Shown here one piece after another: positions 23,552-60,799 of a stretch of 64,000 nt of DNA. The notes below the pieces were generated by a model. The model ran no database searches and was not told the origin of the DNA. It was given only the letters and a program-made list of their open reading frames with translations. This DNA is from Eledone cirrhosa (lineage: Eukaryota): positions 124,634 through 188,633 of the forward strand of contig CAXHJY010000565.1 of the NCBI GenBank assembly GCA_964016885.1, read 5' to 3'. The translations under genes were made by a program, and so were the position numbers. The stretch's first letter is position 1; every line of letters starts with the position of its first letter.

Positions 23552-24080
23552 CGGGATAACAAATTATTGTTATAGGTAGTCCACTTAGGTGTAGTCCAGT
23601 TAGGGTACTCCGAGTAGTGGATAGTATTAACGCTTGGCTAAGTTTGACTCAACAAGACATTTCCATAGTGATGTTCCAAGTACGCAGTGATTTCTATGTA
23701 GTTTACACTTGGAGTAATGGTAAATCAAGAAAGAATAGTGACACGGTTTGCTATACAATAAGGGCTTTAATCACATTGCTGACAATTGTTTCTCTGAACT
23801 GGTAGGAATAGAGATCGCTACCCACCTGTTTTTGCGTCAATCGATCACCAATACTTTGTTATAACCTTCTGCTATAACATTCTCGCATGCTCTGAAGAAT
23901 AGTCTGGTTATAACAAAGTATTGGTGATCGATTGACGCAAAAACAGGTGGGTAGCGATCTCTAGACCTACCAGTTCAGAGAAACAATTGTCAGCAATGTG
24001 ATTAAAGCCCTTATTGTATACCATGTCATGTCACAACAAAGCACTTATTGTAAACCATATCACTTTTCTTTCTTTATTTA
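23552..24080. mobile_element. Foldback insertion in (TA)n with a ~115-bp near-perfect inverted repeat
   Basis: 23753-23866 is the reverse complement of 23906-24020 with a ~39-bp spacer; TA tracts on both sides. Confidence 0.8.
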
Positions 24081-24240
24081 TATATATATATATATATATA
24101 TATTAGAAAGTGAGGTTTTTTTTACAAAATGAAAAATAACCGAGGTGTCCTACACGAGTGAAAGTATAAAGAAAAAGAGATGAAATCGAAAATGCAACTG
24201 GAGTCTTATTTTTTTTTTAAATATATATATTTATTTGGTT

Positions 24241-24278
24241 CCTTTACCGGTTTCGCAGTTCTTCTGCTTTTCAAAAGG
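24241..24278 (-). ncRNA. Minimal type I hammerhead with a U3-A8 variant core
   Basis: Minus strand: cctt TTGAAAA gcag aagaa ctgc GAAA ccgg TA aagg; palindromic helix III ACCGGT. Copies at 27144, 29974 and 30080. Confidence 0.75.
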
Positions 24279-24722
24279 TGAGTTGAGATGGAGGGTCTGT
24301 GGTTTTTCTCACATCTGGTTGGTCTCTAAATGTTACTTGTTTTATATGGAAAAAGTGGCTCGAAATGCCAGGTTTTTCGAGAAGTAATTTGATTGGTTTG
24401 TCAATAATTATAATAAATTTCGAGCCAGTTCGCGTTACAATAGTTCTTCAAATAAGAGGGGGGGGTTGTCACAGGTTGTTTTTTCATATATGAGTGTTTG
24501 AATTTCTTTTTACTTGAAAAAAGGAGGCTCACGAAGGCTTTTTTTTTTGGTTGGTTATAAATGAAATTTGGCTGTCACGTGAACAAGTTTTCATTACATT
24601 TTTGCGCCCTTATTTGGAAAACTATTCTGTAGTCTTTATAGTGAATGTTATGACAATGGAGAGATAGTGGTCAAGAGAAAAGGGATTGGGAGAAATGTTC
24701 TGGTTCAGTGAATATGGTCAGC

Positions 24723-24935
24723 TCGGGGACTGCGATGGGTACAAAAGCCGCTCCAACTTATGCCAACTTAGTCATGGCATACTTAGAAGTCCAGATATAT
24801 GAACAGTCCAAATCAAAATACGGATTGAACTTCCACAAATATTTATCAGAGAATTGGAAACGCTACTTGGATGATTGCCTCATTCTTTGGTCCCACACAC
24901 TCGACCAACTGAAGGATTTCAAAAACAATATATAA
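24723..24935 (+). pseudogene. Penelope-like RT fragment (motifs B-C), a different family from the 57-64 kb PLEs
   Basis: GTAMGTKAAPTYANLVMAYLE...[12 protein letters not shown]. Confidence 0.8.
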
Positions 24936-24965
24936 CAGTTTTAACAACAATTTTAAATAGAACAT

Positions 24966-56842: not shown

Positions 56843-57077
56843 ATATATATAATATATATATATATATATAATATATATATATATATATAATATATATATA
56901 TATATAATATATATATATATATATATATATATATATATATATATATATATATATATATATATATATATATATATATATATATATAATATATGCAAAAGTT
57001 TTATTTAAAATTGTTGGGTTACAACGAGTAAATATTTTATAACTGATATAAAAGCACTCAACAAGTTTTGGAGTAGA

Positions 57078-58715
57078 TTGATTGCATCATCAAAATCTGA
57101 CCTGGGTAAACTTAGCAAAAACATTCTAGACAGGGTGATACAGCAAATTAAAAACTTGAATTGTTTACCTAACTTGAGCTTGTGGAAGGGAACTGGAGAG
57201 GTCGTTGAGTGGTTTAAAGAAATTAAATATAACAATAATAATAAATTTATTCAACTAGATATTGCTAACTACTATTCGTCTATTACCCCTAATCTACTAA
57301 ATAAGGCACTAAATTACGCATTCAAACATACAGACCTAACTAGCAATGAAATGCACATTATATTATCGGCAAGGGAAAACATTGATAGAATTTAATAACC
57401 AACTATGGACTAGGGCAGATAGAGATAATAATTTCGACATTACTATGGGATCATCAGACTCAGCTCAGGTAACGGACCTTGTGGGCCTATTTATATAATT
57501 AATTCGCTGCATAGGAAAATACCCGGTGTTACCGGAGGATTATATCGAGATGACATGCTTTTACTTATTGAAAATAATAACTCTGAACTAAATAGAAAAA
57601 GAAAACAAATTATACAATTTTTTAATTACCTTAATCTAAAAATAGAAATTGAGAATAACCAGTAGAATAGTCAATTTCCTAGATGTAACATTAAATCTCA
57701 ACACATGTCTTCACTATCCATTTCACAAGTTAAATGAAAACTTGAATTATGTCAGTTTTAGCTCTAATCACCCCAGATCTGTCAAAAATACTATAGTGAA
57801 CTCTGTTCAAAAACGTATCTCTAGAATCTCATCTAATAAAAATATTTTCGACGAAAAAGCCCAGTATTACAATGAAGCGTTAGCTAGAGCAGGATATAGT
57901 GATAAAATTATGTACATCGATAATAGACAAACTACCCAAAAATAACAACAATTTTAATTACGGTAACAACTTTAACAACTATAATAGAAAGCATTACAAT
58001 AATTCCAAAAACCAGAAAAGGAATAGAACTAGAAATATAATATGGTTTGCCCCCCCCCCCCTTCTCACTAAACATTAAAACCCACATCGCTAAACTATTT
58101 TTTAATGCTCTTGACAAACGCTTCCCTAGAACACATAAGTATCACTCAATTTTCAATAGACATACTATAAAATTAACATACTCGTCCACCAAAAATTTAG
58201 CACAAAATATTAATAGAATAAATAATAGGAATCTAAAACCTAGCCAAAATACCGAAAATAGCCTAAACAATATTCAAGTAAACAACTGTAACTGTAGAGA
58301 TAGATCTAAATGTCCGCTAAATAACAATTGCTTAGTTAAAAATATAATATACAACTGTAATGTTAAAACTGACTTAAATTCTTTTAATTATGTTGGTTCC
58401 ACCTCGACAGAATTTAAACTTCGCTATAATAATCACAAGAATTCTTTCACGGATCCAAATAAAAAATCTTCAACATCGCTGTCAGGGTTACTCTGGCAAC
58501 TTAAGCATGATAAAATTGGATATTCGATGGTTTGGAATATAGTCTCAAAAGGGATTCCTTTTAATTCCTCTTCTGAGACATGTGACCTCTGCGCGGAGGA
58601 GATATTCTTTATACTAAAATCTAAAAATTCCATTAATTTACGGACCAATTTATTCAGCTGCTGCAGACATAGATTGAACTCAACTTTTAAATATAAATAT
58701 AAATTTAAAATGTAG
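57078..58715 (+). pseudogene. PLE RT and GIY-YIG endonuclease, frameshifted
   Basis: Pieces 57078-57395, 57649-57945 and 58047-58715 are colinear and highly similar to the 62323-63990 ORF. Confidence 0.9.
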
Positions 58716-60230
58716 TATATTTACTTAAGATATTTAACTATTTATGAAGCTTGGCGATAAATCTTTCGATTCCTTCAATTTTTTAAAACCTTCTTCATGA
58801 GTATATAATTAATGAGATTAATTAAACTACCCTAAAATGGTGATGCTCCCAATCTATTGAATAAATTTTTAAGCTAGATAAACTTCTATAATAAATATAA
58901 GAGCATTTGTAGAACAACTGGGTATCCATAAATTTTTTTTTGAATGATTTCTGCTAAATAAGTTTTGTTGAATAATTTTGGTTTTGTTTGCTTTTGATTC
59001 TGATTGCTTCTAATGAACTTGACAATATATTGTCAAATAAATTGGAAGGGTGGTTTTCTGTGGTTGATATGCGTGGCATACTATGTTTTCTTACGTCCCT
59101 AGATACTCTGGGGAGTGATGAAAATATTCTTGGCGTTTTTAATATATTGATATCTGTTGTCTATTCTATGCTTGAACGATAATCATGTAAGTGAGGGCAA
59201 GAATATTATTATTAATATTAATGTATATTTTATGTCTATATATATATGTATGTACATATATGTATGGTGGAATCTTTTGTAACGCAATGAAGATTTTCAT
59301 GAAAAATAAGAAATTACAGAGCCGATCACGTAAATTCACATGTGTGTCTATAATTGTCAACTTGAATTTGAGATAACCTTCTCTTTTCTCTTTTTCTTTT
59401 TTCATGAAAATACATATATACTTATGTATTTCAGTATTTTTGAAGTTTTATCTCAGATTTTGATTATAAACCTAAGAATTTTTAAACTAAACATAGGGTC
59501 ATTATTTTTTCATTTTTTCACACATTATTGATATGTGTCTCATTCATGAATATTGATATTTACATTATAATACCTAATTCATTTGAATTGATAATTCAAA
59601 TGGATGAAACATAATATTTTAAATCTATCATCTTTCTGAATATATCTATTTCTTCTCCTCTTCCCTCTCCACTTGACGAGATTTATGTATCGGCTGATTT
59701 AACTGTATCTCTCCCACCTCGTATGATAGATATTACTCGATCTACCTCTTTTCTCCCACCACCTATATCTCTCTCTACCTCTCTTTATTTATTTTTACTT
59801 TTATTTTTATTTCTCTCCGTATCCTTAAGACTATAACTAAATAAATAAATAAATAAATAAATAATTACAGTACCCCCTTCCCTCCTTAATCTCTCATTTG
59901 TACGTTGATCATCTGTGCCCAAGCTGCCTATCATTTTTCACTTCCTCAATATATTTCTCTCTCCCATATCTCTTTCTCTCTCTATCTCGCTCTGTTGTTT
60001 TTCTTTACATACATCTCTTCATCTTCTTCGTCTTCCTCTCTAACTGTCCTTAGCACTATACACTTTCTTTCTTCTTCTCTTCGTCCTTAGCACTATACAC
60101 TTTCCTTCTTTTTTCTCTTCGTCTTTCTTTCTAACTGTCCTTAACATTTTCACTACCAAATCAACTTTTTAAATGGAAGTTGTAATGTTTAAGGTATGTC
60201 AAATTTATTTATAAAACGGTTTATATATTG

Positions 60231-60296
60231 TATTTTGTCTGAGGAAGGCATACCATATTTTTAATATGTTATCCCTGAAATATATATAATGAAATA
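60231..60296 (+). ncRNA. PLE pLTR type I hammerhead ribozyme
   Basis: tattttgt CTGAGGA aggcataccatatt ttt aatatgttatccct GAAA tatata TA atgaaata; palindromic ATATATAT. Confidence 0.7.
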
Positions 60297-60799
60297 AATA
60301 TGGTTTTATAAATATAGTTTCCATTTGTTTAATATCGTATATATATAATATATATATATATAATATATATAATATATATATATATTATATATATATATAT
60401 ATATATATATATATATATATATATATAATATATATATATATATAATATATATATATATATAATATATATATATATATAATATATATATATATATATATAA
60501 TATATATATATATATAATATATATATATATATATATAATATATATATATAATATATATATATAATATATATATATATATATATATATATATATATATATA
60601 TATATATATATATATATATATAGAATATATATATATATATATATATATATATATATATATATATATATATATATATATATATATATAATATATATATATA
60701 TATATATATATATAATATATATATAATATATAAATATATATATATATATATATATATATATATATATATATACTATATAATATATATATATATATTATA

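Follow-up and report, generated by a model that had tools for sequence, protein, structure and literature searches.

Organization of the locus

The analyzed window is a 64,000-nucleotide stretch of the Eledone cirrhosa genome (contig CAXHJY010000565.1, positions 124,634 to 188,633 of the forward strand; coordinates below are those of the window). It contains tandem arrays with hammerhead motifs (HHR), copies of Penelope-like elements (PLE) and head-to-head stubs. The two outward 3' ends of a 310-bp or 466-bp array nearly always fall at a pair of distinct, fixed sites (A and B), site B in the arrays being A plus a tail of 35-74 nt, and the same labels are used for the other features:

5044-5172, very short head-to-head 3' ends of a Neptune-type PLE; left B, right A
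5646-5899, head-to-head stub with a one-sided extension of ~95 nt, no HHR; sense inferred from the tail pattern only
18483-19054, older head-to-head stub; left arm A, right-arm tail ~90 nt, loose HHR-like motif on the minus strand
23552-24078, head-to-head stub with a one-sided extension of ~180 nt, no HHR; sense inferred from the tail pattern only
24103-24926, Neptune-type PLE 3' end (24103-24723, minus strand, site B) head-to-head with an RT-coding piece (24723-24926, plus strand)
25848-26664, plus strand, dimer of the 422-bp HHR unit; one arm only, which ends at site A, flanked by TA left and right
26951-27256, head-to-head 3' ends of a Neptune-type PLE; B on the left, A on the right, HHR not found
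28404-28973, minus strand, 3' end of a putative Hydra-clade PLE; single tailed arm that ends at site B, flanked by TA left and right
29182-29529, stub with one HHR per arm (29333-29377 minus, 29431-29475 plus); left tail ~95 nt
29893-30254, head-to-head 3' ends of a Neptune-type PLE; A on the left, B on the right, HHR not found
30452-31623, minus strand, left arm of the putative 310-bp retrozyme array; 3.8 units with HHR, the tailed 3' end (site B) adjoining TA
31622-33259, plus strand, right arm of the same array; 5.3 units with HHR, 3' end at site A against TA
33590-37874, minus strand, left arm of the putative 466-bp retrozyme array; 9.2 units, 3' end at site B
37872-41283, plus strand, right arm of the same array; 7.3 units, 3' end at site A
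42167-42543, head-to-head stub; HHR 42290-42318 (minus) in the left arm only, right-arm tail ~57 nt
56991-60337, plus strand, putative Hydra-clade PLE, 5'-truncated and frameshifted; ends at site A, HHR 60239-60288
60800-64000, minus strand, second putative Hydra-clade PLE; its A end adjoins TA, and the contig end cuts its ORF piece 62323-64000 (558 aa)

In both arrays, HHR motifs lie on the minus strand to the left of the junction and on the plus strand to its right, and TA tracts adjoin both outer ends; beyond site A of the 466 right arm, a short duplicated AT-rich stretch precedes the TA. Coordinates and motif scans agree with the preliminary description, in which the HHR-sense strands of the two arrays diverge from a central junction and both 3' ends meet TA. 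The junction microhomologies that it had reported, CT at 31622 and TGT at 37872, were re-found as arm overlaps of 2 nt and 3 nt, respectively.

The 310, 466 and 422 families consist of tandem units within the 150-450+ bp range of animal non-LTR retrozymes, each with a type I hammerhead, and occur as dispersed near-identical copies, a sign of mobility. Rfam model HH9 scores the 466 unit at 38.9 bits, below the gathering score of 52, and the 310 and 466 arrays contain no stop-to-stop frame of 100 aa. By these sequence features, the units are classed as non-LTR retrozymes and are putatively self-cleaving. Similarity between the 422 and 466 units is 66%, and an old relative of the 310 unit lies at 19155-19485. 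The single-arm 422 dimer at 25848-26664 is a counter-example to the two-armed form.

For the coding PLEs, relatives of the 60800-64000 copy with 745-aa open frames are found elsewhere in the genome. The protein of such a frame contains a DKT motif, a CxCX5C linker, CxxC and CxH motifs but no CCHH, and RWR where an RWK-like motif is expected; a Pfam search of this protein gave no match. These motifs agree with the features given for the Hydra clade in the consulted text of PMC8557442, and the copies at 56991-60337 and 60800-64000 are accordingly treated as probable Hydra-clade members. PLEs of this group carry a canonical HHR and insert into (TA)n. In the 56991-60337 copy, an inverted tail piece of ~85 nt (site B, 56991-57079) is joined to the 5'-truncated ORF, as the preliminary description had noted. 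The ends at 60337 and 60800 are tail-to-tail neighbours across a TA tract. The second group of coding elements has Pfam RVT_1 and C-terminal GIY-YIG domains, with a CX2-5CxxC linker and CCHH recognized by eye; the label Neptune-type rests on these domains and motifs and covers Neptune and Nematis alike. No HHR was detected in one 5-kb Neptune-type copy (loose scan) or in the 3' 1.6 kb (one core mismatch allowed). Open ORFs are present in at least two PLE clades of this genome.

One and the same autonomous Neptune-type PLE is the source of the ends at 26951, 29894 and 5043; the end at 24103 is also Neptune-type, its family being traced via its RT fragment. In the stub at 29182-29529, the HHR strands diverge and TA lies on either side. 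The stub at 42167-42543 borders on no more than TATATA at its right end, with a LINE fragment beyond it. The arms at 26951, 29894, 5043, 5644 and 23552 contain no HHR, even with one core mismatch allowed, so an HHR-sense strand is unreadable there. The HHR-like motif at 18674-18718 passes a loose scan but fails the strict descriptor. The preliminary description had counted all of these foldbacks among non-coding HHR elements. This view has to be abandoned for 26951, 29894 and 5043, which derive from a coding Neptune-type PLE, but fits the foldback at 29183. The foldbacks at 5043, 5644, 18480, 23552 and 42169 do share the head-to-head form, but HHRs are absent from 5043, 5644 and 23552, confined to the left arm at 42169 and recognizable only loosely at 18480.

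Orientation and pairing of the 3' ends

Arm orientation was called by script at 60 sampled array loci, 39 of the 310 and 21 of the 466 family. Head-to-head arms occur at 46 of them (30/39 and 16/21, respectively), no locus is tail-to-tail only, and 14 show no inversion; this is far more than chance would give, and the architecture recurs across the genome, in line with the orientation claimed earlier. One array locus has an extra internal 35-nt minus match, located in a hairpin.

The pairing of the two sites is the most informative feature, and it was overlooked in the preliminary description. Among the 43 array loci with both ends visible, 41 combine one A end with one B end, and neither A+A nor B+B occurs; if every end chose its site freely, 41 mixed loci without exception would have a probability of ~5e-13. 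The head-to-head 310 loci comprise 26 A+B, one B+other and three with one end unseen, and the head-to-head 466 loci 15 A+B and one A+other. The longer arm ends at A in 15 array loci and at B in 26. In addition, the 422 family is head-to-head A+B at all six other loci with both ends seen, the family of 29182-29529 shows equal pairing at 3/3 bystander loci, and Neptune-type ends are A+B at 4/4 bystander loci. The putative Hydra-clade PLEs are A+B in 19 of 21 loci (8 and 11 in two sets); the other two (L120 and L125, one per subfamily) are B+B, with arms 99.9% alike. Single-arm insertions end in some cases at A and in others at B.

The stretch from A to B is the known one-sided PLE tail, common to arrays and coding PLEs. 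The 466 tail (74 nt) and the Hydra tail (88 nt) both exceed the published 30-40 bp. In a fold comparison of the A-B intervals, hairpins adjoin site B in the 466, 422, Hydra and Neptune families and are weak in 310, and no shared fold motif was established across these five. A census of 742 kb of unmasked sequence, which is biased toward PLE-rich flanks and is not equal to a genome-wide control, yielded 123 foldbacks, 56 of them outside the named families; 28 of these 56 have a one-sided extension flush to TA. HHR-like motifs in the census point outward in 12 and inward in one of 55 foldbacks (p 0.003).

Junctions and target sites

Arm overlaps at the junctions average 1.8 nt (310) and 2.4 nt (466), compared with 0.75 under the null (p 1.5e-4 and 3e-4), and filler is present at 12 of the 46 array junctions. 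The 5' ends of the arrays show no departure from an even spread (KS p 0.27 and 0.16), and no gathering at the HHR cut site was seen at the array loci. Where flanks are readable (L051, L081 and L039), target duplications measure 12-16 bp including end microhomology, and a single duplication encloses the insert as a whole. End microhomology with the target amounts to 1-5 nt, and two loci sit in AT-rich sites other than (TA)n.

Origin of the two-armed insertions

The head-to-head rule, the excess of junction microhomology, the 12-16 bp duplications and the common one-sided tail argue for priming from two ends followed by joining. The A and B end rule suggests that both sides of a cut chromosome start copying RNA at once. 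The best explanation, which we consider probable, is PLE-mediated priming at A and B from two registers or templates, with the resulting cDNAs joined. The 310, 466 and 422 retrozymes would be inserted in trans by a PLE RT/GIY-YIG protein, which would cut the two strands of AT-rich DNA, in most cases (TA)n, with a stagger of 7-16 bp. Reverse transcription of an element RNA would then be primed by the 3'-OH of either target end; one copy would start at A, an internal site, and the other at B, which lies 35-90 nt downstream of it. As templates, a single donor may supply multimeric or circular RNA, used as two molecules or in two registers, and each arm would thus be a tandem array from the outset. 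Both cDNAs would stop at random and be joined by microhomology or short filler, and failure of one side would leave a single arm. The preliminary description had likewise proposed that a break in palindromic (TA)n primes both ends and that the cDNAs are joined; two-end priming and joining are retained here, but palindromicity is not, given the two AT-rich loci outside (TA)n.

Array insertions bear the PLE signature of a head-to-head arm, a one-sided tail and a target duplication, and this end signature supports a link to PLE machinery. The 310, 466 and 422 units have no homology at word size 7 to the UTRs of two Hydra subfamilies and one Neptune-type copy. The earlier proposal of a PLE RT/GIY-YIG acting in trans therefore stands as to the machinery, but the choice of the 62323-64000 protein as the enzyme is not supported, because this homology is lacking and at least two PLE clades have open ORFs.

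An unlikely alternative is that both ends start at the same site and that A is made later by endonuclease cleavage or trimming of one arm. Such trimming accounts for the strict A+B pairing and the occasional B+B, and recognition by the D. virilis endonuclease depends on the tail (cited in PMC11167929). However, in PMC11167929 the in vitro start points of the RT map to both sites, single-arm insertions include some with an A end and some with a B end, and the target duplication directly adjoins the A end at L051 and L081.

Snap-back, which we likewise regard as unlikely, would have one cDNA (or an antisense template) fold onto itself and so act as template for the second arm, with an endonuclease resolving the second end. 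As far as their consulted text goes, self-priming was put forward for head-to-head Penelope in PMC3846280, and the tail was ascribed to endonuclease-mediated resolution in PMC8557442. Locus-specific variants are common to both arms at L073, L076 and L078, as is a 385T>C type at L085-L088. L073 and L076 fit one arm copied from the other at a fixed offset, and the two B+B Hydra loci have near-identical arms, as snap-back would have it. However, at L078 a variant has period 2 in one arm and 3 in the other, and a repeated variant of one arm is absent from the other. In the 310 and 466 arrays, the junction positions of the two arms are unrelated and the joint lacks a palindrome, and which of the two arms, A or B, is the longer varies from locus to locus. 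The short arms at 5043, where the arms have scant sequence overlap, and at 56991 hold tail sequence missing from the other arm and are thus not copies. Arms that share donor variants without being mirror copies argue against snap-back and against an assembly artefact, and favor two-end priming from two templates; the variant evidence for two templates comes from few loci and could be blurred by later gene conversion or unit duplication.

Two further readings are very improbable. The first, two independent insertions in one TA tract fused by later deletion, fits the many nested insertions gathered in TA tracts here and the tail-to-tail pair at 60337/60800, but predicts A+A or B+B in half of the loci (0/43 seen), junctions that retain some TA, and arms from unmatched subfamilies. 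In 22/22 Hydra loci, the partner arm is no more distant than the median other copy, and a single target duplication surrounds a whole insert. This reading is already contradicted by the pairing counts. The second is that a non-PLE LINE moved the arrays via classical twin priming. The RTE LINE of the window also ends near TA and shows outward-facing inversions at 3 of the 13 loci whose 5' end is visible, but these consist of non-overlapping pieces with variable internal ends, with no foldback (0/13) and no second fixed end. A sequencing or assembly foldback artefact is least credible: the window lies on a small 188-kb contig and the 31622 junction was not seen in contigs of four sequencing runs, none known to be from the same individual, an outcome that carries no weight as proof, but an artefact would give mirror copies with random ends rather than fixed, different ends and differing variants, target duplications are present, most loci lie on the largest contigs, and site A is joined to TA in nine contigs of run X1.

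As a broader and more tentative proposal, somewhat short of an even bet, PLE retrotransposition may be two-ended and asymmetric by default, with one RNP committing the two ends to A and B on separate RNAs. The tail, the inverted repeat and the retrozyme satellite arrays would then be products of that reaction, the arms coming from multimeric or circular RNA. These young arrays are a natural record of the PLE reaction, in which the counted rule of one A and one B end per insertion, together with the variant patterns, separates two-ended priming from the published self-priming. The end signatures also point directly to PLE enzymes as the machinery of animal retrozymes, which would be inserted already in array form. 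The components of such a system are at hand, namely a small RNA, a (TA)n target and candidate PLE proteins whose frames are open.

Comparison with known systems

The literature already describes PLEs in head-to-head form, their tails, the targeting of (TA)n and a link between retrozymes and PLEs; strict A+B pairing and its occurrence in retrozyme arrays were not found in the main texts, supplements apart, of the literature searched. In the consulted text of PMC3846280 and PMC8557442, endonuclease-bearing PLEs have an inverted 5'-truncated copy placed head-to-head, partial tandems, a tail at one end, 9-10 bp target duplications and, in the Hydra clade, (TA)n targeting. The insertions described here differ in having non-coding tandem arrays in both arms, a counted and nearly strict pairing, and tails of 35-180 nt. 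The account given in those texts is antisense self-priming or endonuclease resolution, and PMC8557442 names the origin of the inverted repeats and the one-sided tail as open.

Animal non-LTR retrozymes are described as tandem units of 150-450+ bp with a type I HHR and low GC, features that the units here share, with PLE mobilization through circular RNA proposed (PMC7229834; bioRxiv 10.64898/2026.07.22.740005). The main texts of both leave insertion ends unanalyzed, the word "inverted" occurring 0 times in that of PMC7229834. The bioRxiv text reports retrozyme homology to pLTRs in Xenopus, whereas none was found for 310, 466 and 422.

According to the consulted part of PMC11167929, the Anolis Poseidon PLE cuts and extends both strands in vitro at AT-rich targets, and two adjacent internal start sites bound the tail. 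However, no difference in start site between strands was observed for Poseidon, whereas the genome here implies one site per end; nor was target homology observed there, in contrast to the end microhomology of 1-5 nt found here. In L1 twin priming or "dual priming", as covered in PMC2837659, both nicked strands prime, and outward 3' ends are joined within one target duplication; dual priming uses two RNAs and is presented there as postulated and unvalidated. L1 twin priming is a minority event that yields non-overlapping pieces, whereas the two-armed form is the majority among the loci sampled here, with both ends fixed.

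Head-to-head retrozyme arrays and their orientation genome-wide

The window is rich in TA microsatellites, forms the terminal part of a 188-kb contig in the 3.0-Gb assembly, and contains two tandem arrays of hammerhead (HHR) retrozymes, with units of 310 and 466 bp:

30452-31623, minus strand, left arm of the 310 array
31622-33259, plus strand, right arm of the 310 array
33590-37874, minus strand, left arm of the 466 array
37872-41283, plus strand, right arm of the 466 array

Each unit carries a minimal type I hammerhead pointing outward from the junction, all four outer ends abut TA, and the arms overlap by CT (310) and TGT (466), confirming the divergent sense strands, TA-flanked ends and junction overlaps claimed in the preliminary description. 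At 19155-19485 lies an old relative of the 310 unit with a single arm (75% alike), whose minus strand shows an HHR-like motif.

The claimed orientation also held among loci fetched genome-wide, which represent the youngest copies and a non-random sample. For the 310 family, 38 loci were taken from the best 150 of 226 matches (39 of the 169 candidates were scored, and every listed match was on the minus strand), and for the 466 family, 20 loci were taken from the listed matches. With the window included, the arms were head-to-head at 30/39 (310) and 16/21 (466) loci, the latter fraction leaning high because some loci were picked with both strands already visible, and an exclusively tail-to-tail arrangement occurred at 0/39 and 0/21. 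Of the nine 310 loci with a single arm, L061 shows an inverted arm of 24 nt on inspection by eye. The head-to-head architecture with outward ends is a real and recurrent feature.

Pairing of two fixed 3' ends

The outer 3' ends map to two fixed sites, A and B, located at unit positions of about 268-280 and 305-313 in the 310 family and about 384-396 and 451-465 in the 466 family. Where both ends could be seen, A is combined with B at 26 of 27 loci (310; three further loci with an unseen end lie outside this count) and at 15 of 16 (466); the exception in each family has one end at neither site, and neither A+A nor B+B pairs were found. The same pairing characterizes the 422-bp family (6/6), Penelope-like element (PLE) ends of the Neptune type (4/4) and the 29182 family (3/3), the latter two at bystander loci met in fetched sequence, as well as Hydra-clade PLEs (19/21; eight A+B in one set, 11 A+B and two B+B in another). 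The arms of the two B+B loci (L120 690-7870, L125 1060-7010) are 99.9% alike, compared with 99.0-99.4% at four A+B loci, which may point to a second route or to an effect of the assembly. According to PMC8557442, PLE insertions carry a "tail" at one end only, and the interval by which B exceeds A is this one-sided tail.

The 3' end is longer in one arm in 11/11 structures named in the preliminary description; in the 23552 foldback the other arm also extends, by 44 nt. Elsewhere, at 24927-24970, the Neptune-type RT piece is followed by a 44-nt end that resembles the Hydra tail, and then by TA; this is either a chimera of the two clades or the result of insertion into a tail already present.

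Identity of the remaining foldbacks

The foldbacks at 26951 and 29894 had been described as having diverging HHR-sense strands, and those at 5043, 5644 and 23552 as similar, but an HHR search of all five was empty. Those at 26951, 29894 and 5043, together with 24103-24926, are 91-99% matches to the 3' terminus of a protein-coding PLE with a 775-aa frame, RT, C-terminal GIY-YIG and Neptune-type cysteine motifs. Hammerheads are usual in PLEs of this kind; none was detectable in the Neptune-type 3' region at L196 2700-4301. The 42169 foldback has no more than TATATA at its right end, and the two-arm form is not universal, as the 422-bp HHR dimer at 25848 is a single arm.

A further abundant family of short foldbacks (L032 1494-1603, L033 6424-6572, L077 2207-2320, L086 3777-3895, L156 2223-2343) lies within TA tracts and shows an approximately 80-nt one-sided extension, with no HHR motif in the arms. 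In addition, the window contains a 740-bp GC-richer core between 190-bp inverted repeats (55724-56841; TA at the right end) and a TA-flanked family with a 26-bp hairpin repeat at its start and an internal 190-bp tandem unit (51750-53729).

LINE control and bystander foldbacks

An RTE LINE in the window served as a control:

48570-50570, RTE LINE, ends near TA

At 29 other loci of this LINE, the 5' end was visible in 13, of which none was a foldback (0/13); three inversions were found, all joining non-overlapping pieces, like classical twin priming. Outward 3' ends by themselves are therefore not PLE-specific; the foldback with two fixed ends is. Among 55 bystander foldbacks, a sample biased to PLE-rich flanks, HHR-like motifs faced outward in 12 cases and inward in one.

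Junctions, target sites and templates

Junction overlaps averaged 1.8 nt (310, n=25) and 2.4 nt (466, n=9), compared with 0.75 for random joins; filler was present at 12/46 junctions, and the 5' ends of the arms showed no departure from a uniform distribution. Where flanks were readable, a single 12-16 bp duplication (including end microhomology) surrounds the entire two-armed insert at L051, L081 and L039. The L051 and L081 sites are AT-rich non-(TA)n DNA, indicating that TA is preferred, not obligatory.

Variants common to both arms are locus-private in L073, L076 and L078 and subfamily-level in L085-L088, indicating that both arms derive from one donor. The Hydra partner arm is no more divergent than the median other copy in 22/22 loci. 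However, the L078 arms differ in periodicity, one having period 2 and the other period 3, and the L073 arms agree only at a three-unit offset. The longer arm ends at A in 15 loci and at B in 26. With no informative variant at most loci, the evidence on one template or two comes from few cases.

Single 340-nt contigs, each a 310 unit closed on itself, occur in three sequencing runs with other organism labels (X4, X6, X9; 99% alike, low depth, query window 31500-31750), and runs holding the unit come from 17 studies. Related species, prey or contamination could account for them, as could a circle that is shared widely. At the N position in the core of the hammerhead (31573, unit position 115), one variant makes up about 80% of the depth in run X1 and is present in all three other runs; it is rare in fetched genomic loci yet fills the long array L031, and may mark a dominant donor.

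Proposed mechanism and comparison with known systems

The observed geometry, A+B pairing, microhomology and duplications leave two-end priming and cDNA joining, as first proposed, broadly right, with the list of foldbacks partly mislabelled. In the mechanism that we consider most likely, and on balance probable, a PLE protein would make a staggered cut of both strands, priming would start at A from one cut end and at B from the other, with RNA of a single donor in multimeric or circular form as template, and the two cDNAs would then be joined; here we infer both the priming chemistry and the RNA form. The acting enzyme had been named as the 62323 protein (ORF piece 62323-64000), which is Hydra-clade by motifs and whose relatives include 745-aa open frames. 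This assignment is unproven: no homology of the arrays was found to the UTRs of two Hydra subfamilies and one Neptune-type copy, and the Neptune-type family likewise has 775-aa frames.

In the openly accessible main texts searched, a PLE end signature on retrozyme arrays, a strict A+B count and variant evidence for two templates were not found. Published work already describes head-to-head PLE structures with a tail (PMC3846280), (TA)n targeting by Hydra (PMC8557442), paired HHRs on opposite strands (PMC4209133) and PLE dependence of retrozymes (PMC7229834; bioRxiv 10.64898/2026.07.22.740005), and dual priming is postulated for L1 (PMC2837659). For the Poseidon PLE, PMC11167929 reports that both strands are extended in vitro from two adjacent sites, which fits the mechanism proposed here; however, site use there is alike between strands, whereas our mechanism would assign one site to each end.
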